A program made the position numbers and the translations under genes. A DNA stretch of 64,000 bases. It comes from an uncultured Leptospirales bacterium. Its GTDB lineage: Bacteria; Spirochaetota; UBA4802; UBA5550. This document shows positions 612 to 63,796 of the stretch, piece by piece. The notes under the pieces are model-generated. The model worked only from the letters and a program-made list of their open reading frames with translations. It made no database searches and was not told the origin of the DNA. The DNA lies in assembly GCA_964491265.1 (NCBI GenBank), contig CAZBFP010000002.1, positions 134,288 to 198,287 of the forward strand, given 5' to 3'. Position 1 is the stretch's first letter. Every line of letters begins with the position of its first letter.

Positions 612-645
612 AATATCCCCGCTGCCTGCGGCGGCGGGGATATTA
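612..645. repeat. GC-rich mini-hairpin AATATCCCCGCTGCC-TGC-GGCGGCGGGGATATT (REP-like family)
   Basis: Near-perfect 14-bp stem, seen directly. The same hairpin recurs at 56447-56477 and, split by an insertion, at 63609-63716. Confidence 0.6.
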
Positions 646-930
646 GAGCATTTTATTCCAGATAAAAGTTAAGGAATTAACACTGATATTTTTTAAATTT
701 TTGTCACCGGGGGTAAGGACGTCTATAATTAATTGATAATAATAATAAAAAAAACCGGGTATTCATCACTTATTATTAATAGATCCGGTTTGAAGTTTTG
801 AAATTCCCCGTATGAAATTAAAGTTCTTGAAATATTCACAGAAAAAAATATTAAGTTAAATTGATGTTAGTTCAATATAATGTATTTAAGTTAAGGTAAA
901 AGATCAGGCTCATTGTGGAATGTCTGGGAA

Positions 931-1126
931 GCCCCCTTGTCTCCCAGAGGGGGCATGTAAAATGAGCTATTGAGTAAGTTGATAAATCTGCAGAGTATTG
1001 GAATTCAAATATTGCGGATAAAAGATTAAGATGTATTAAAAAAAATTGGAATAGTTAAGTAAATAAAAAAATACAATTATCAGAGTGATAATAGATAACT
1101 CGTGCCCCCTTTGGGGGACAGGGTGC
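931..1126. mobile_element. MITE-like element, family 1 (about 196 bp), opposite orientation to the 56622-56819 copy
   Basis: Terminal inverted repeats GCCCCCTTGTCTCCCAGAGGGGGCATG (931-957) and CGTGCCCCCTTTGGGGGACAGGGTGC (1101-1126), each itself a CCCCC...GGGGG hairpin. The AT-rich 144-bp core is similar to the cores at 54509-54656 and 56649-56793. Confidence 0.65.
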
Positions 1127-33165: not shown

Positions 33166-33648
33166 CTATTTTTTTATTTTACTAATAAATCTGTCCAGCT
33201 GGTTGGCAAAGGCTTGCGTGTCCCTGGGGGTAAAGGGGGGTGGGCCCCCTGTGTCAACACCGCAGTTTCTCAGCTCCTCCTTCAGGTTCCGCATTGTGAG
33301 TTTTTCACTGATGTTGTCTTTCGAAATTAAATTCCCCCTTGGATCAATAACTACTGCACCTTTCTCTATTGCCCGATCCGCAAGGGGAATATCTGCTGTT
33401 ATTATCAGGTCACCAGGCTCTGCCAGTGCTGCTATTTTATCATCAGCTTCATCCGGGCCTGCCGGAACAACAATCCCGGAAATAAATGAGGATTTGGGGA
33501 ATTTCAGCGGGATATTGGCAACAAGGATAAGGGGGATCTTCGCTCTTTCCGCTGCACGAAAGAGTATCTCCCGGATAGAAACAGGTATTGCGTCAGCATC
33601 TGCCAGTATCTGCATAAAGCGGCATCCATAAAAAATTTTTATCTGCAT
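33166..33648 (-). CDS. YaiI/UPF0178 family protein
   Basis: DADAIPVSIREILFRAAER, GDLIITADIPLADRAIEKGAVVIDPRG, TGGPPPFTPRDTQAFAN. Collinear with E. coli YaiI. Confidence 0.7.
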   Translation of the reverse strand: MQIKIFYGCRFMQILADADAIPVSIREILFRAAERAKIPLILVANIPLKFPKSSFISGIVVPAGPDEADDKIAALAEPGDLIITADIPLADRAIEKGAVVIDPRGNLISKDNISEKLTMRNLKEELRNCGVDTGGPPPFTPRDTQAFANQLDRFISKIKK

Positions 33649-33792
33649 TATTTCTATGATTATAAAATAAGTTCAGATTTAAGTCAGTAAATGTTATGAA
33701 TTGTTTTGTCAAGCAAGAGGAGAAATATCTGAATATCCTTCAAGTCCCCTGAAAATGGACTTGAAGGGGTAGCTGTATAATTTTTTGGGTGT

Positions 33793-33879
33793 TGTCATTC
33801 CCGCGTAGGCGGGAATCTCATAACTTCTGATTTTAACAGGAGATTCCCGCACTACGTTGTCACTTCGGCTGGAATGACA
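33793..33879. mobile_element. Miniature 87-bp palindromic element (family 2), copy 1
   Basis: TGTCATTCCCGCGTAGGCGGGAATCTCATAA...GAGATTCCCGCACTACG...GGAATGACA. Terminal 9-bp inverted repeat TGTCATTCC/GGAATGACA plus internal hairpins. About 85% identical to 63351-63437. Confidence 0.7.
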
Positions 33880-33927
33880 GGCTTTCTTTAAAAAATTTTA
33901 CTGTTATTCTCGAAGGGCGTTATGTAA

Positions 33928-35379
33928 TTATAGAATTTTATTTGACCTGGTCCAGATTTTATTCTCCTGGGCCTGCTTGATCAGTTCCTCTCTGAAATCG
34001 GGGTGTGCTATTGAAATAAGCTTCTCCGCTCTCATCCATAGTGGAGATAATTTAAGATTAACACATCCGAATTCTGTAGCTACAAACTGTACTGACTGTC
34101 TCGGTACTGTTACAGCTGTACCCGGTTTAAATGAGGGCACTACCCTGGAAATCATTTTCCCGTCAGGGAGAGTGTAGGTGGAGGGAATGCATATAAAGCT
34201 TTTCCCCCCTTTTGACCAGAAAGACCCCAGAACAAAATCGAGCATTCCGCCGTTACCCGATATCTGCTGGAACCCGTTACTCTCTGCATTAACCTGCCCC
34301 ATGATGTCTATTTCAATAGCAGAATTTATTGAAGTGAAATCGTTTATAGATTTAATAACATCAAAATTATTCACATAACCTACATTATATGAAGCAAGAG
34401 AGGGGTTATTGTGTATCCAGTCATAGAATTTTTTGCTCCCCAGGGCAAAGGTGTAAACAGTTTTCCATCTGTCTATATCCTTTTTCGAATTATTAAGCTT
34501 TCCGGAAAGTTCCATTTCCATGAAAGCGTCAACAAGCATCTCTGTATGTCCGCTGAGGTTTTTTAAATCACTCTCTGCAATCATGTGCCCCAGTGTATTT
34601 GGCATACCGCCAATACCAAGCTGGATGCAGCACCCGTCATGGAGGTATTTAAATACATGCTCAGCAATTCTTTTCTCCACATCTGTTGCTTCTATATTGG
34701 GGAGTTCGAACATGGGTTCATTCTCACCCTCTACTATATAATCAACCTGGGAAACATGAATAGACTCTCTTGCCCCGCCCAGGGCTACAGGTATATTCTG
34801 ATTTACCTCTACTATCACTTTGTGAGCTTTGCACCATCCATGCATACATGCGTTGTTTATGCCGAAGTTGAAGTAGCCGTTTGAATCCATGGGGGCCGTG
34901 CGCATAATATGAACATCCTGAAGCCTTATCCCTGTTTTATCAGGGTCGTATTCATAGAGATCTCCCTTAAGGTGTTCTGTCTGCCAGTCGGTTTCTCCAA
35001 AGTGAAGCGGCGCATATGAAACCCTGTCCGGGTACTGCATCTTCATTAAGCGTGTGAGGAGTGAAAAATGGAAATCGTTGTATGTAAAAGCTTTCCCTTC
35101 CGGGTCATTGGTGAGAACAGCCGGAACCGGCGGTATTGTAACTGCGCCGTATACATGAACATCCTTCAGTTCATCTTTTCTGTTCGACAGGGCAGTATCG
35201 CATGCTACCGGTTTCCCGTTAAAAAAACCGTAGGTAATCCAGTCCCCTGATTTAACGCATTTAAGAGCTTCTTCCGCAGTGCAGAGTTTTTCCCTGTACT
35301 GCTGCATTACATCCTTTCTGATCTGGTAATTCATAAAATCCCCCTTCCTCTTTATGTTTATTTGTGAGGAGATGACCAT
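33928..35379 (-). CDS. Acetyl-CoA hydrolase/transferase family protein (4-hydroxybutyrate CoA-transferase-like)
   Basis: Size and two-domain layout match the family. The true start is probably MNYQIRKD at about 35334. Confidence 0.6.
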   Translation of the reverse strand: MVISSQINIKRKGDFMNYQIRKDVMQQYREKLCTAEEALKCVKSGDWITYGFFNGKPVACDTALSNRKDELKDVHVYGAVTIPPVPAVLTNDPEGKAFTYNDFHFSLLTRLMKMQYPDRVSYAPLHFGETDWQTEHLKGDLYEYDPDKTGIRLQDVHIMRTAPMDSNGYFNFGINNACMHGWCKAHKVIVEVNQNIPVALGGARESIHVSQVDYIVEGENEPMFELPNIEATDVEKRIAEHVFKYLHDGCCIQLGIGGMPNTLGHMIAESDLKNLSGHTEMLVDAFMEMELSGKLNNSKKDIDRWKTVYTFALGSKKFYDWIHNNPSLASYNVGYVNNFDVIKSINDFTSINSAIEIDIMGQVNAESNGFQQISGNGGMLDFVLGSFWSKGGKSFICIPSTYTLPDGKMISRVVPSFKPGTAVTVPRQSVQFVATEFGCVNLKLSPLWMRAEKLISIAHPDFREELIKQAQENKIWTRSNKIL

Positions 35380-51089: not shown

Positions 51090-51262
51090 CGTATATTCAT
51101 GATTCTCTTTATTTAAACCAGGTATATTTTTACCAGGTTTTTTTTAATGCTGTTAATATACCATTTTGTATCATTTATATATTATCCTTACATAAAGTAA
51201 TTTTTATACTTATTTTTCAATTAAAAAAAGCCTTTCCATATTATTAATTTGCATTTTAATTT

Positions 51263-51355
51263 AATGCTAATTCCTTAACTTTTATTTGAAAAAAATTGCT
51301 TTAATATTGAAAACAGCATTACTGCACTAAAAGATATGTTCGGGAATAATTACTT
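51263..51355 (+). repeat. Promoter-like repeat family 3, copy A (basal form, no hairpin insert)
   Basis: TTAATTCCTTAACTTTT...TTGAAAACAGCATTACTGCACTAAAAGATATG...GGAATAATTACT, 48 bp upstream of the 51403 start codon. It contains a TTGAAA-N17-AAAGAT promoter-like pair. Confidence 0.55.
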
Positions 51356-51402
51356 ATAAAATTAAAGATTATATCAATAAAAATATTGTTGATTGTGAAA
51401 CT

Positions 51403-52857
51403 ATGAATAAAAGACCTTTTCAATCTATTATTATCAGAGCATTCATTATCTGTATACTCTTAAATGCTTTACCTGCAGCAGCAGGGACAGCTGCTGTTTA
51501 CCCGGCCTATACGGGTAATCCGGTATTGGACCATATTCTCAGTTCTGCTGAGTATAAATTAAATGAAATGTTCCATAAATCGGGGCGATATTATCCTGCA
51601 GATTATCACAGTAAAAAAGCCTCCCTTGAAAAAGCCGCTGGTGAAAACAGTGAAATCTTTTATAAAAATGCCGCGCGATTAATTCATGCTGATCTTGCTG
51701 TAATGCTGAGTATCGATTCTCAAAGGGGTGTTTTTGCATTAAAAATGACCTGCATTGCTTTTACATCTGCCGGAGAAAAAACCTTGTTCGATTCACTTAT
51801 TACTTCATCAATACCTGACAATATCCCCCTTAAGGGTGTGCTCCGGTTTTCTCATTTTTTTAATGACCTTAAACTGGAAGCAGAGGTGATCCGCATAGAT
51901 GATACCGGGGGGAGGGTGATTGATGCGGGGCAGTGGAACAGCCTTGAAGCAGGGGAGTATAAAACCTCGGCTGGAATCGTAAATGTAACAGAGCTTTCCA
52001 GGTATAATTCTCTACTTGAAGGATCAGATTTATCTGAAGGGGAGAGTATTATTTTTGATATTTATCCCGATTTGACAGATTATTTCAGGGAAACAGAGAG
52101 GGTGATTAAGCGGAATATTGTAAGGAAATATGGAACAGATGAAGTTCTAAACAGTAAGGAGGGTGCGGCAAAGGAGATGGTATATGGAACCTGCATTATA
52201 AATCCGGGGGCCAACCTTTTTCTCCCCGGATACGGTTCTTTCCTCTCTGTTGAATATATGGGGATAGAAAAAAGTACCCCGGATCGTACAGGGATGATCA
52301 TTGCCACAGCTATTATTGCAGGACACTTTATGCTCCCCGGCATGTTGACCGGTTTTAAAACAAATTTTTTCCCCTGGGTTAAAGACAGCGATAAAACTTC
52401 AGAAATGCAGAGGCTTCATATTTTTCTCTGGGCATCACTCCCTCTTACCTACTCGGCATCATTCTACAATCAGCTTGCATGGCAGTATCACAGCAAAGAT
52501 CTCCTCCCACCGCTTTTTATTGATAGTGATAATACAGCAGCTGTGATATCACTTTTTGTTCCAGGGGGCGGGCTTTTTTATAAAGGGCAGAGAGGGGCGG
52601 GTTTTGCTTTCTATGCTGCGGAAATGTCACTCCTCGGTTACGGGATATATACCGGTGAGAGTGAAAAACGCAGGGCTGCTTTTATCGGATTGGCAGCAGT
52701 AAAGGTTATTGATATTGCTGCCGCATATTTTGTTCCACCAGGTTACAGGGTCTTCAGGGATGAAATTTCCGGTTCCGCGCCATCATTCTCCATGGGGATA
52801 CTCCCCGGAATTGAAGGTGACGGGGAATTTACATTTTCAGTTACACAATCTTTCTAA
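51403..52857 (+). CDS. Hypothetical secreted/membrane protein
   Basis: Signal peptide and C-terminal hydrophobic segments. 484 aa, no known domain. Confidence 0.45.
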   Translation: MNKRPFQSIIIRAFIICILLNALPAAAGTAAVYPAYTGNPVLDHILSSAEYKLNEMFHKSGRYYPADYHSKKASLEKAAGENSEIFYKNAARLIHADLAVMLSIDSQRGVFALKMTCIAFTSAGEKTLFDSLITSSIPDNIPLKGVLRFSHFFNDLKLEAEVIRIDDTGGRVIDAGQWNSLEAGEYKTSAGIVNVTELSRYNSLLEGSDLSEGESIIFDIYPDLTDYFRETERVIKRNIVRKYGTDEVLNSKEGAAKEMVYGTCIINPGANLFLPGYGSFLSVEYMGIEKSTPDRTGMIIATAIIAGHFMLPGMLTGFKTNFFPWVKDSDKTSEMQRLHIFLWASLPLTYSASFYNQLAWQYHSKDLLPPLFIDSDNTAAVISLFVPGGGLFYKGQRGAGFAFYAAEMSLLGYGIYTGESEKRRAAFIGLAAVKVIDIAAAYFVPPGYRVFRDEISGSAPSFSMGILPGIEGDGEFTFSVTQSF

Positions 52858-52935
52858 CTTTTTTTTTATTAATACAGGAATGGCGGGGAAAATGATAATA
52901 TAAATTCTTCGTCACCCGACATTATCATCATATAT

Positions 52936-53321
52936 TGTCATTCCTGCGAATGCAGGAATCTTATACTATAGTTTTATATAAATCATCCCATTCAGGATTC
53001 ATTTCATTTATCACATTGTCTTTGAAGTCCCTTTTCCATTTTTTCATCTGCTTTTCTTTTATAATTGCACTTTCAATATTTTGAGTTTCAATAAACCAGA
53101 CAAGTTTACTGCAATTATATTTTGAACTAAAACCCTCAATTAGCTTATTTTTATGTTCATATACACGTCTTAAAAGATTATTGGTTATACCAATGTAAAG
53201 CACTGTGTTATACTTATTTGTCATTATATAAACATAGTATTTATTCATTAGATAATATCAATTCCATAGAATTTGATTTATGAGATTCCGGCACTTCGTA
53301 TTCACTTCGGCCGGAATGACA
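52936..53321. mobile_element. Family-2 palindromic element carrying a GIY-YIG nuclease gene in its loop (putative autonomous copy)
   Basis: The 5' end TGTCATTCCTGCGAATGCAGGAATCTTATAC and 3' end ATGAGATTCCGGCACTTCGTATTCACTTCGGCCGGAATGACA are collinear with the 87-bp copies at 33793 and 63351. The 288-bp ORF replaces the central loop. Confidence 0.7.
52961..53248 (-). CDS. Small GIY-YIG nuclease family protein (UPF0213/YhbQ-like)
   Basis: 95 aa. YYVYIMTNKYNTVLYIGITNNLLRRVYEH is the GIY-YIG motif block. Confidence 0.75.
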   Translation of the reverse strand: MNKYYVYIMTNKYNTVLYIGITNNLLRRVYEHKNKLIEGFSSKYNCSKLVWFIETQNIESAIIKEKQMKKWKRDFKDNVINEMNPEWDDLYKTIV

Positions 53322-53326
53322 GGACA

Positions 53327-54430
53327 TTACACAATCTTTTTAACTTTTTTTCTTGAGAAAAAGAAGAAGGCTAAAAATAAAACATAAGAGGCGATTGCCG
53401 GTATTACTGCAGCAGGGTAGAATTTCGCAATTGGCGCAAGAAGGAGTATAACAAACCAGTGATAGTAGATCGCCTTACCTGTGTTAAGTGCAATAGGGAA
53501 ATCGTTCCATCTTATTATCACCATCATACCTGTAAGATTCCAGCCGTATAACGAATAAAAGGCGTGCATCCTTAATATTACCTTCCCGTAGTATTCATAA
53601 AAAGCGAATTTAGTAAGTACAATATATATTATTCCAGTGACCGCTGAGATTAAAAGAAAGTACATCCCTGATACAAGGAAATGCTTCTGCTGTATACGTG
53701 TGCCGAATCTGAAAAAAAAGAAGAATATAAGTAATACAGTGATGAAGAGGAGTGCGGATATTATGACTTCGCCGATAAAAACTTGAAAAATAATAAAAAG
53801 AAAGAATACTATAACACCTCCGCATATGAGCCAGAAAAAGATATGCTCTGCAATATATATAAGGGAGGATTTCTTCTCTTCAATTATTCCGAAAATTATA
53901 GACATGGTGATGAGTGATACAGGGAACGAAAAACCGAGAAAAAAGACATTTAACGTAAGTTTTTCGAAATGGAAAAGGTTAAAGTGTACTTCGTTTAATA
54001 TAACAAAGGATGATAGGAGCAGGGCGATTGAGAGACAGAGGAGCGAGGCCTGATGAAATTTTTCTGAAGCGCTCCATTTTGCCCTGAAAAAACTGTAAGG
54101 GAAAAATGGAAATTTTTTAATACGGTACGATTCCACAATAAATGCAAGCACTACAGCAATAGCTGCTGCAGGGTAGTAAATTTCAAAAAATGCCAGCATG
54201 GCGTATATAATGCTCAGGAAAAAGAATATTAATGTTTTAAACGACGGTACGCTTCTCCCCTCAGTAAGATAAAGGATTGTAAATCCGCCGCTTGTAAGGT
54301 TGAAAAGGAATATATGGAGCCTTTCAAAGTTTTTATCCATATATATGTCCAGGTATCCAAACATGAATGCCAGGGACATTGTGGTAAAAAGCAGGTATCT
54401 TGAAAGGTATCTTATATTCATTGTAAATAT
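53327..54430 (-). CDS. Polytopic membrane protein, unknown function
   Basis: About 10 TM segments. The ORF-track start at 54505 (MPPLGDRGK) is a read-through of the MITE inverted repeat. The likely start is MIFTMNIRY at about 54430. Confidence 0.5.
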   Translation of the reverse strand: MFTMNIRYLSRYLLFTTMSLAFMFGYLDIYMDKNFERLHIFLFNLTSGGFTILYLTEGRSVPSFKTLIFFFLSIIYAMLAFFEIYYPAAAIAVVLAFIVESYRIKKFPFFPYSFFRAKWSASEKFHQASLLCLSIALLLSSFVILNEVHFNLFHFEKLTLNVFFLGFSFPVSLITMSIIFGIIEEKKSSLIYIAEHIFFWLICGGVIVFFLFIIFQVFIGEVIISALLFITVLLIFFFFFRFGTRIQQKHFLVSGMYFLLISAVTGIIYIVLTKFAFYEYYGKVILRMHAFYSLYGWNLTGMMVIIRWNDFPIALNTGKAIYYHWFVILLLAPIAKFYPAAVIPAIASYVLFLAFFFFSRKKVKKIV

Positions 54431-54480
54431 CATTCTTTCCGGATTATCGGGGGATAAAAGCAGATCTTTACAAATCCTTT

Positions 54481-54683
54481 TCCCCCTGTCCCCCAAAGGG
54501 GGCACGAGTTAATATATTTTTACTCTGATAATTTAATTTTTTATCATTCCTATAACAACTTCAATATTGTTTAATACATCTTCATCTTTAATATGTAATA
54601 TTTGGATTCTAATACTTTGAGAAAATTCATCTACTTACACAAGTATTCTTTTTACCTGCCCCCTTTGGGGGACAGGGGGCAGA
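54481..54683. mobile_element. MITE-like element, family 1 (about 203 bp)
   Basis: TIRs TCCCCCTGTCCCCCAAAGGGGGCACGAG (left) and CTGCCCCCTTTGGGGGACAGGGGGCAG (right). The core is similar to the 56622-56819 copy. Confidence 0.65.
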
Positions 54684-54703
54684 CTCCGGAAAATTCAGGA
54701 GCA

Positions 54704-54915
54704 ATTAATGGCGTTCCTGCAAAAAGTAACTTATTTTGCCACAGAGGCTCAGAGACACAGAGAAAGATGAACTAATTATACAGATATATGAAATCGTACA
54801 TAAATATATTTACAATTTTTTGCAAATATGTATTATTGATTACTAATTTCTATAAAATTCCGTACCTCTGTGACTCTGTGTCTCTGTGGCAGACTTTTTG
54901 CAGTAGCGCCATTAA
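54704..54915. mobile_element. IR-flanked AT-rich element (about 210 bp), distinct family
   Basis: Left arm ATTAATGGCGTTCCTGCAAAAAGT...CCACAGAGGCTCAGAGACACAGAG and right arm CCTCTGTGACTCTGTGTCTCTGTGGCAGACTTTTTGCAGTAGCGCCATTAAT are imperfect inverted repeats of about 50 bp around a 100-bp AT-rich core. Confidence 0.5.
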
Positions 54916-54955
54916 TATCAATATATCCTCAAACATTCATTGAAAATCCATTATA

Positions 54956-56368: not shown

Positions 56369-56402
56369 GTTAATGCCCCTTGAAATCTTTTATTGAGTAA
56401 AA

Positions 56403-56524
56403 GCAGTGTTAATTCCTTAACTTTTTTTTGAAATAAAATGCTCACATATCCCCGCCGCCGAAGGCGGCGGGGATATGGAAAACATCATTATTGCACTAAA
56501 AAATATCTTTAGGAATAATTACTG
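56403..56524 (+). repeat. Promoter-like repeat family 3, copy B, with GC mini-hairpin insertion
   Basis: Same ends as copy A (GTGTTAATTCCTTAACTTTT...AGGAATAATTACTG), with ATATCCCCGCCGCCGAAGGCGGCGGGGATAT (56447-56477) inserted. Confidence 0.55.
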
Positions 56525-56621
56525 GAGTAAAAGTATAATTCATTGCCGGTGAAGGCAATCAAATTTTTTTGAGCCATGAACCTTATTGCAGCATCTACCC
56601 CGGGGTTAATTTCTTCGCTTT

Positions 56622-56819
56622 TCCCCCTGTCTACCAAAGGGGGCACGATTTATCTATTATCACTCTGAAAATATAATTGTTACTTCTTCGATAACTATTC
56701 CTTTTATATTGTTCCGCCAATCTTTTACAAACTCAACAATATAAAGGATTTTTTAATACTTTGATTCATCAACTTGCTCAAGTTTTTATTTTACGTGCCC
56801 CCTTTGGGGGACAGGGGGC
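56622..56819. mobile_element. MITE-like element, family 1 (about 198 bp)
   Basis: TIRs TCCCCCTGTCTACCAAAGGGGGCACGA (left) and CGTGCCCCCTTTGGGGGACAGGGGGC (right). Core similar to the other two copies. Confidence 0.65.
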
Positions 56820-63299: not shown

Positions 63300-63350
63300 T
63301 ACATTTACCTGAAAGTTATTTTTTTAATATCAGTATAAATTTGTGGGTGG

Positions 63351-63437
63351 TGTCATTCCCGCGCATGCGGGAATCTCATAATTTCTGATTTTTTCATGAG
63401 ATTCCCGCATTCCGTTTTCGCTCCAGCCGGAATGACA
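63351..63437. mobile_element. Miniature 87-bp palindromic element (family 2), copy 2
   Basis: TGTCATTCCCGCGCATGCGGGAATCTCATAA...CATGAGATTCCCGCATTCCG...CAGCCGGAATGACA. Same length and about 85% identical to 33793-33879. Confidence 0.7.
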
Positions 63438-63565
63438 ATAAATGTGTATACAACCCGAAAATAAACTGTTACTATCTTTTAGAATATCATTAATAAGTTT
63501 TTTATTCTTGAAAATGACAACTATTTTTTTAAATATGTCATTTTACGTGATATTATCAAAAAAAA

Positions 63566-63763
63566 CAGTGTTAATTCCTTAATTATTTTGTAGAATTAAA
63601 TGCTGAGATACCCCCACCGCCGAAGGGGGGCTTCAAGGCTGTGTTATTAAACTTTAAAAGAGTTTAAAAGTCCCCCTCCGGGGGCTTAACTTAATGACAT
63701 TGAGGCGGCGGGGTATTGAAAACAGCATTATTACACAATAAAGTATCTTCAGGAATAATTACT
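63566..63763 (+). repeat. Promoter-like repeat family 3, copy C, with split GC hairpin carrying a nested 77-bp insertion
   Basis: Ends GTGTTAATTCCTTAATTATTTTG...AGGAATAATTACTG. The GC hairpin halves at 63609-63625 and 63703-63716 are separated by an insert with its own CCCCCTCCGGGGG palindrome and GGGGGCTT direct repeats. 34 bp upstream of the 63797 ATG. Confidence 0.5.
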
Positions 63764-63796
63764 GAAATAAAAAACAATTATATTAAGAGGAATTTT

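Follow-up and report, generated by a model that had tools for sequence, protein, structure and literature searches.

The window, i.e., the whole 64-kb stretch of DNA analysed here, carries two copies of an 87-nt palindromic repeat, both on the + strand, at positions 33793–33879 (copy A) and 63351–63437 (copy B). A preliminary sequence-only reading had given these coordinates correctly, as well as the identity of about 85%: the cores agree at 74 of 87 positions, leaving 13 differences, and their 9-nt ends TGTCATTCC/GGAATGACA, described there as an intact terminal inverted repeat, are indeed unbroken in both copies. Copy A is located 120 nt upstream of the start of yaiI (33166–33648, − strand), and its end lies 20 nt downstream of the stop codon of an acetyl-CoA hydrolase/transferase gene (33928–35379, − strand). 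Copy B is located upstream of serC, between the likely serC promoter region and the ribosome-binding site of this gene. Of the two placements proposed earlier, that of copy B upstream of serC stands, while that of copy A “after yaiI” has to be reversed, since yaiI is on the − strand and the copy lies upstream of its start. An ORF scan revealed no frame of 50 aa or more starting in copy A and none of 40 aa or more in copy B. The same hairpins occur at the ends of a 387-bp unit around a small ssnA-like gene, 19 kb away.

The 87-mers are merely the cores of longer elements. Similarity between the copies begins 25 nt to the left of the 87-mer and runs about 30 nt past its right end, and the full elements measure 141 nt (A) and 151 nt (B); the 87 bp previously taken as the element boundaries have to be extended accordingly. 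The features are as follows:

33768–33908, + strand: full element of copy A, 141 nt, composed of left terminal repeat, 87-nt core and right terminal repeat (family alignment, covariance model)
33768–33792, + strand: left terminal inverted repeat of copy A, GGTAGCTGTATAATTTTTTGGGTGT (family consensus GGTAGCAGTTTAATTTTGTGGGTAA)
33880–33908, + strand: right terminal inverted repeat of copy A, degenerate
33794–33817, + strand: left SRM/NTS-like hairpin of copy A, GTCATTCCCGC-GTAG-GCGGGAATC (family pattern, pairing count, NTS 24/28)
33842–33878, − strand: right SRM-like hairpin of copy A with a 17-nt loop, variable stem position mismatched (C·T)
33760–33767, no strand: left target-site duplication of copy A, CTTGAAGG, equal to CTCGAAGG at 7/8 positions
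33909–33916, no strand: right target-site duplication of copy A, CTCGAAGG
63326–63476, + strand: full element of copy B, 151 nt, with 14 extra nt (63438–63451) between the right hairpin and the right terminal repeat
63352–63375, + strand: left SRM/NTS-like hairpin of copy B
63400–63436, − strand: right SRM-like hairpin of copy B with a long loop, variable stem position mismatched (C·C)
52936–53322, − strand: SRM-ssnA-SRM unit, 387 bp, with the same two end hairpins and without clear outer terminal repeats
52961–53248, − strand: ssnA-like gene, 95 aa, single GIY-YIG domain
52937–52960, + strand: short-loop SRM hairpin downstream of ssnA (hairpin pattern)
53284–53320, − strand: long-loop SRM hairpin upstream of ssnA (hairpin pattern), with 88% identity to copy A's right arm

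A covariance model based on the family described below detects copy A with 147.9 bits (E = 5e-26, model positions 1–141) and copy B with 127.4 bits (E = 4e-22), and its only other matches in the whole 64-kb window are the two ends of the 387-bp ssnA unit. Single-strand folding of the 87-mers, as DNA or RNA and on either strand, is far above that of shuffled sequences (z from −6.4 to −8.4). Both results indicate that the 87-nt repeat does not arise by chance. The window copies are old copies of the element, copy B having decayed flanks.

The surroundings of both copies have features of their own. Between DUF1015 and serC there is an inverted repeat ATGACA-N16-TGTCAT (window 63514–63541), which is kept in the window and in the related contigs L144, L142 and L061 and is likely an operator or promoter element. 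Since copy B lies between this repeat and the serC ribosome-binding site, the whole element is probably in the serC leader. The insertion point of copy A is the 5′ foot of a hairpin CCTTCAAGTCC-N9-GGACTTGAAGG (window 33739–33769) at the 3′ side of the CoA-transferase gene; the target duplication restored its stem, so this hairpin is intact beside copy A.

To characterise the family in related genomes, metagenomes were scanned for the left extension followed by the start of the hairpin, which yielded 33 stretches, about 25 of them family members. Most of these come from the same JGI sample series (3300033169–3300033178, ENA ERZ272522xx) as the window organism, and one 340-kb contig of this series carries the window’s ssnA protein, the copy-B orthologue and at least one family member. 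Among the matches listed from a scan of representative genomes for hairpin pairs (see below), the closest relatives of the window copies belong to Leptospirales metagenome-assembled genomes and have the left extension in common. A family element consists of GGTAGCAGTTTAATTTTGTGGGTAA on the left, the 87-nt core, and AACTTTTCCCCCTAAAATTCTACCACTACC on the right, the latter being the inverted complement of the left end. The terminal inverted repeats are 25–30 nt long (25 nt on the left, GGTAGCAGTTTAATTTTGTGGGTAA; about 30 nt on the right, with the complement GGTAGTGGTAGAATTTTAGGGGG...) and 141 nt apart; the element ends may also be given as GGTAGCAGTTTAATTTT... and GGTAGCAGTTTAATTTTGTGGG, with the termini GGTAG...CTACC. 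There are two family lengths, about 141 nt and a 197-nt form with 56 additional nt in the right loop. The right hairpin's loop either contains or lacks the 56-nt segment GTGCAGYCAYGATGRCTGCCTGCAAGCAYGAAACAKGATGTTTCWATAATGCTTGC (L164:1039–1179 versus L177; also L155, L156, L157, L166 and L176:11743–11939), and L164 and L177 represent one locus in two samples, which shows both loop states.

Besides the window copies, at least 16 distinct insertion loci were found in related Spirochaetota metagenome contigs. The octamers flanking the element match at 7 or more of 8 positions in 12 of the 16 loci, perfectly in eight, and several loci reach 9/9, while permuted flank pairings gave a mean of 0.37 loci and a maximum of three. 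Copy A retains such a duplication with one mismatch (CTTGAAGG/CTCGAAGG). The 8–9-bp target duplications have no common consensus sequence, and consensus-type copies at different loci are 90–97% identical to each other. Two other interpretations of the flanks were rejected. The 23–25-nt left extension is not a pre-existing target site because it is found with the element at unrelated loci, is flipped at serC and has an inverted partner on the right. A target duplication of about 30 nt at L061 was dismissed because, as L109 shows, the similarity on the right-hand side belongs to the element itself; the true duplication is 8 bp. The family is a MITE in every feature except a parent element: it is short (less than about 300 bp) and non-coding, and it has terminal inverted repeats, target duplications of fixed length and empty sites.

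The empty sites were found at both window loci; presence or absence of the copies in close relatives had been proposed as a check by the sequence-only reading. The contig L205 (CoA-transferase 92% identical) has the gene order of the window and an exact empty site for copy A, with one copy of the target, no element and a spacer of 162 nt versus 279 nt in the window. At the serC locus, the DUF1015–serC spacer of L144 (SerC 89% identical) is 131 nt long and is free of any repeat, and in L142 (SerC 93%) copy B is absent and another palindromic repeat occupies its spot. L061 (SerC 79%) has a family member in the opposite orientation, across the conserved inverted repeat from the position of copy B; it is flanked by ATATCGCA/ATATCACA, and the octamer is single in L144, which lacks the element. 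The site of this L061 insertion is empty in L142 as well. The empty sites and the placement of the L061 copy exclude a conserved leader of the adjacent genes, which the sequence-only reading had named as the outcome that would speak against a mobile repeat, and imply independent insertions. Its suggestion of a mobile repeat is borne out by the target duplications, the empty sites and the copy that, at an orthologous serC locus, has another position and the opposite orientation. The outer terminal repeats, the duplications and the tie to the GIY-YIG nuclease had escaped that reading.

Two other repeat families were noticed in the same DNA. One (window 613–643, 51257–51387, 56399–56556 and 63561–63796; L142:~480–600) combines a GC-rich hairpin ATATCCCCGCCGCCGAAGGCGGCGGGGATAT with a conserved tail AAAACAGCATTAYTGCAC...GGAATAATTACTG; in the window's serC spacer, the part next to DUF1015 is taken up by one of its copies, another is serC-proximal in L142, and L144 has neither. 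The other is palindromic (window 928–1126, 54477–54916 and 56618–56819), its CCCCCTGTCCCCCAAAGGGGGCACG arms being 23–25 nt long, 92–100% complementary and about 150 nt apart, with nested inverted repeats at 54704–54916.

The structural argument of the sequence-only reading, that most differences between the two copies are paired and that this covariation indicates a functional structure, is not confirmed. None of the 13 differences is compensatory: the loop of the left hairpin has two, that of the right hairpin six and the central spacer four, and the remaining one affects a stem base of the right 3′ arm that has no pairing partner in either copy (C·T and C·C). The change CGCGTAGGCGGG versus CGCGCATGCGGG, quoted as stem-keeping, affects only loop bases, and the supposedly retained TCTCAT/ATGAGA pairing is one-sided, being TCTCAT/AGGAGA versus TCTCAT/ATGAGA, with an A·G mismatch left in copy A. 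The differences do avoid the stems: of the 40 positions in stems or tails, 1 is affected, versus 12 of the 47 in loops or spacer (Fisher p = 0.0024).

Pairing was also counted over 18 copies of the family, and the conserved fold proved to be that of each arm alone, in line with what Ssn sites would lead one to expect. The two local hairpins, each formed by an arm on itself, are 98.3% paired, and 14 of their 16 pairs are invariant. One pair covaries: at the variable N on the left, 12 copies have U-A and five, both window copies among them, have C-G. This is real but thin support, and one or two events are probably behind it. At the matching position of the right hairpin, 14 copies have G-C and four, again with the two window copies among them, are unpaired. 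The central cross-arm hairpin GCGGGAATCTCAT/ATGAGATTCCCGC was rejected as a functional structure: it has an A·G mismatch in 14 of the 18 family members and is thus not conserved. The proposal to look for covariation in further copies has, over these 18, been answered with one covarying position, and the central stem singled out by the sequence-only reading is not the conserved one. In addition, the inner arm of the right hairpin reads CCCGC in both window copies (33843–33850 and 63401–63408) versus CCGGC in the family, a change that breaks the right hairpin and perfects pairing with the 3′ arm of the left one; it may stem from conversion of one arm by the other or from common ancestry in a subfamily.

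The nature of the arms is suggested by the ssnA unit. Chenal 2025 (Nat Commun, PMC11893778) described Ssn, single-domain GIY-YIG proteins of about 94 aa, which bind the hairpin CGTCATTCCCGCGMAVGCGGGAATCYRG (NTS, generalised as SRM) only as single-stranded DNA and in one orientation, and cut a few nucleotides 5′ of it. Such hairpins occur near 71% of ssnA homologues and on both sides of 42% of them, and the hairpin loop of NTS is dispensable (PMC11893778). The protein encoded in the window has 95 aa, a GIY-YIG domain (Pfam PF01541, residues 3–76, E = 1.6e-15) and no further domain, in agreement with this description, and SRM hairpins are present within 500 bp on both sides of its gene. In N. 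meningitidis SsnA, the catalytic residues Y6, Y17 and E64 (PMC11893778) are spaced like Y7, Y18 and E65 of this protein. We found 1127 homologues of this protein, no sequence relative among solved structures, and only four distant partial matches in viral contigs.

Each arm of the element forms a hairpin GTCATTCCNGC-loop-GCNGGAATC that matches the NTS/SRM motif, the two arms facing each other. The shared-hairpin pattern GTCATTCCNSS-loop-SSNGGAATC has exactly six matches in the 64-kb window, which form three inverted pairs: copy A, copy B and the ends of the 387-bp unit (52936–53322). The right arm of the copies is 79–88% identical to the right end of the ssnA unit, including the 17-nt loop, which would be accommodated if the loop is dispensable here as well. 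The left hairpins of both copies agree with the published NTS consensus in 24 of its 28 bases and keep the GTC before the palindrome and the C after it, both critical to binding and cutting according to Chenal 2025. The published SRM pattern HGTCWYN(0-2)YYVSBRHN(0-5)WNVSBRGN(0-2)RNCYNB has no match in the window because the final base is A where the pattern needs C, G or T (B); without its last two letters, it matches both left hairpins, and the long-loop arms exceed its N(0-5) loop. By sequence and gene association, the element arms are putative sites of the Ssn/SRM type, the two old window copies being possibly poor Ssn substrates owing to the mismatch at the variable position of their right hairpin. 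Since the core matches both ends of the ssnA unit, the 87-mers are an SRM-ssnA-SRM unit with the gene deleted, and the earlier description of them as miniature copies of a larger palindromic element is upheld.

Gene-less hairpin pairs are common. Scanning of representative genomes for a hairpin, a short spacer and an inverted hairpin gave at least 115 stretches in many phyla; among the matches listed, only 2 of 115 loci have ssnA within 8 kb, from which we conclude that pairs without the gene are frequent. In other phyla, outer inverted repeats were present at 4 of 77 hairpin pairs, with no duplication signal.

The ssnA locus of the window is the same in relatives at 87% and 91% identity and is conserved in three relatives, so the window gene looks inherited rather than recently moved. 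At another locus, the P0020 homologue (69% identity) has GGTAGCAGTTTAAATTTGTGGGCAA and a hairpin immediately 5′ of ssnA, and the P0027 and window loci have diverged forms of the same outer extension in this place. The outer repeat or its diverged form is found directly 5′ of the ssnA-adjacent hairpin at three independent ssnA loci, so that it may be a component of the Ssn system and not of some unrelated insertion sequence. Among the loci examined, none had an ssnA copy that combined both terminal repeats with a target duplication.

Several rearrangements were observed around ssnA. A 25-nt direct repeat TTACACAATCTTTYTAACTTTTTTT brackets the ssnA unit of the window (52841–52865 and 53327–53351); its first copy overlaps the 3′ end of a 484-aa ORF (51403–52857) and follows an apparently decayed right hairpin GGGGAATTTACA. 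In relatives (L191, L192, L200), the same sequence, which is partly like the MITE terminal repeat, is the linker between tandem hairpin-gene-hairpin units. Tandem arrays beside ssnA (L191:1261–1400, L192:1826–1960, L210:1548–1622) have units in which ssnA is deleted to its last 15 or so codons between long-loop and short-loop hairpins, or in which the extension plus hairpin is repeated after the gene; such arrays point to local events, duplications or deletions between hairpins, in addition to transposition. In some samples, an IS110-family transposase gene (PF01548 + PF02371, 327 aa; L192:1963–2946 and L193:976–1959) is inserted exactly at the end of an SRM hairpin by ssnA (GCAGGAATGT|ACTG), and in L191 this insertion is absent.

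Taken together, these data make it probable that the window copies represent a MITE whose arms are a pair of Ssn-type hairpin sites and whose core is a gene-deleted ssnA unit. The role of the arms as Ssn sites and the activity of the protein are putative, being deduced from sequence. When DNA becomes single-stranded, at the replication fork or during the entry of transforming or conjugating DNA, each arm would fold on itself, and the folded arm would be bound and its strand cut by the SsnA encoded at 52961–53248; the MITE would in this way have scattered Ssn target sites around the chromosome. The weakest step of this scheme is movement, which we ascribe to a transposase acting in trans, since the fixed 8–9-bp duplications, the long terminal repeats and the lack of a target consensus point to staggered cuts. 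Such a transposase is ranked first, with Ssn-dependent movement kept as a live minority view. A transposase gene with these terminal repeats (GGTAGCAGTTTAATTTT... ends) was found neither in the window nor in about 300 kb of related contigs, nor in viral and plasmid collections, where the scan of viral contigs for the terminal repeats gave only chance matches in coding regions and plasmid BLAST gave no match. An inverted-repeat scan of the window and a terminal-repeat search of the relatives’ loci found no parent element.

Would the element be moved by the Ssn nuclease itself? Its ancestor would then be an autonomous terminal repeat-hairpin-ssnA-hairpin-terminal repeat unit encoding nothing but the 95-aa GIY-YIG protein, with the MITEs as deletion derivatives, and cuts made 5′ of the extended hairpins, together with host repair or replication, would lead to excision and insertion. 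The authors of the Ssn study likened NTS-ssnA-NTS to an insertion sequence (PMC11893778). In our data, ssnA is the sole gene seen between or beside these repeats, GGTAGCAGTTTAAATTTGTGGGCAA with a hairpin stands just 5′ of the P0020 homologue (with the diverged extension at P0027 and in the window), no other transposase was encountered in the searched sequences, and the hairpins are oriented such that the known cut, 5′ of the motif, would be made in the top strand for the left hairpin and in the bottom strand for the right one. However, this explanation is unlikely, given that an ssnA copy with both terminal repeats and a target duplication was not found, that the window ssnA looks inherited at its locus conserved in three relatives, and that hairpin pairs of other phyla mostly lack outer inverted repeats (present at 4/77) and give no duplication signal. 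Moreover, the known SsnA cuts only single-stranded DNA, a few nt from the hairpin and not 25–30 nt off at the element ends; to our knowledge, GIY-YIG enzymes do not join strands, and a duplication fixed at 8–9 bp is the mark of a transposase complex (DDE transposition). It is likewise doubtful that the terminal repeat and the hairpin constitute one extended recognition site, with the 95-aa GIY-YIG nuclease as the sole element protein moving both ssnA units and MITEs; if true, this would define a new class of bacterial transposon leaving 8–9-bp target duplications. A different mover, of the RAYT (HUH Y1) type spreading REP/BIME repeats, or an IS200/IS605-like single-strand element, is suggested by the inverted hairpin pairs, their intergenic position, their tie to a small nuclease gene with the same flanking hairpins and the termini GGTAG...CTACC, and the same analogy was drawn for Ssn (PMC11893778). 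This interpretation is extremely improbable because the associated protein is GIY-YIG and not HUH. HUH-mediated movement makes no target duplication, as opposed to the 8–9-bp duplications of the family.

The element could also act as an RNA, be it a small RNA, a terminator or a structured leader, its conservation being that of RNA structure. The RNA fold is strong, the end of copy A is only 20 nt past a stop codon and copy B lies between the likely promoter region and the ribosome-binding site of serC. The Rfam scan of the whole window gave no family at gathering score, the match to FtrB (RF02748), a 115-nt Francisella sRNA, at 33773–33835 being below the threshold (25.9 bits, E = 0.023, versus a gathering score of 66). 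The Northern probe for FtrB contains the identical hairpin GTCATTCCCGCGTAGGCGGGAATCTC (PMC3091763), and since it is the hairpin of copy A, FtrB itself appears to include an SRM-type repeat; the probe indicates that such units can be transcribed, which does not make the element an RNA gene. Nevertheless, we give the RNA explanation very little chance: the copies occur in either orientation and at differing positions by orthologous genes and are absent in close relatives, the target duplications mark insertion events, and covariation is confined to one pair. SsnA does not bind RNA of the NTS motif (PMC11893778), and the deletion of FtrB has no growth, stress or virulence phenotype (PMC3091763). 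A promoter or terminator role was rejected, since the respective scans gave nothing at the copies, and any RNA effect would be a by-product of insertion.

Ssn nucleases with their hairpin repeats have been known only since 2025, and that study did not settle by what means the repeats reach hundreds of copies or whether the gene-plus-hairpin unit is, or once was, mobile; in our literature search, no paper was found in which SRM hairpins form part of a unit that has terminal repeats and target duplications. The family is direct sequence evidence that an Ssn-type hairpin pair travels as a discrete unit: its ends are defined, its targets are duplicated, empty sites exist, and many loci have near-identical copies. 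The family also ties the outer ends of this unit to ssnA genes in related genomes. It makes the mover testable, be it Ssn or a transposase, and offers a natural set of extended sites (long-loop arm, mismatched variable base) for probing Ssn specificity. In annotation, strongly folding intergenic palindromes of this kind should be regarded as putative nuclease-site MITEs rather than as regulatory RNAs.

Among the known systems, the window family is akin to Ssn/SRM (PMC11893778) in having hairpins GTCATTCCNGC-loop-GCNGGAATC on either side of a gene for a single-domain GIY-YIG protein of about 94 aa, the GTC before and C after the palindrome, and many gene-less hairpins elsewhere, mostly intergenic. 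It differs in that its gene-less hairpins are paired inside a unit with 25–30-nt terminal repeats and 8–9-bp duplications, one arm has a 17-nt loop, and the published pattern is missed by one terminal base; mobility of the Ssn units was proposed in Chenal 2025, not demonstrated (PMC11893778).

The left hairpins of both window copies fit exactly the Neisseria dRS3 sequence (ATTCCC-N8-GGGAAT, flanking RS units), whereas the family consensus is CCTGC/GCAGG and not CCC/GGG. The tandem hairpin-spacer-hairpin arrays by ssnA in relatives (L191, L192, L210) are similar to dRS3 mosaic elements, and the IS110-family insertion in the L192 hairpin recalls that dRS3 is the target of a Piv/IS110-type phage recombinase. 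We know of no target duplications described for dRS3 units.

With Correia elements and MITEAba12, the family shares a size of 141–197 bp, terminal repeats, target duplication, the lack of coding capacity, dispersal and presence/absence in relatives; it differs in that no parent insertion sequence with the same ends was found and that its interior consists of what are, by their sequence, two hairpin sites for a nuclease whose gene is in the same genome. FtrB (RF02748) has the identical 26-nt hairpin and a weak model match over 33773–33835, but the score is far below the family threshold and the remaining sequence is unrelated. Finally, the REP/BIME-RAYT and IS200/IS605 systems offer an analogy, as they would share with the window family a small nuclease gene flanked by hairpins that are recognised as single-stranded DNA, the differences being the GIY-YIG versus the HUH fold and the target duplication, which HUH systems do not make.
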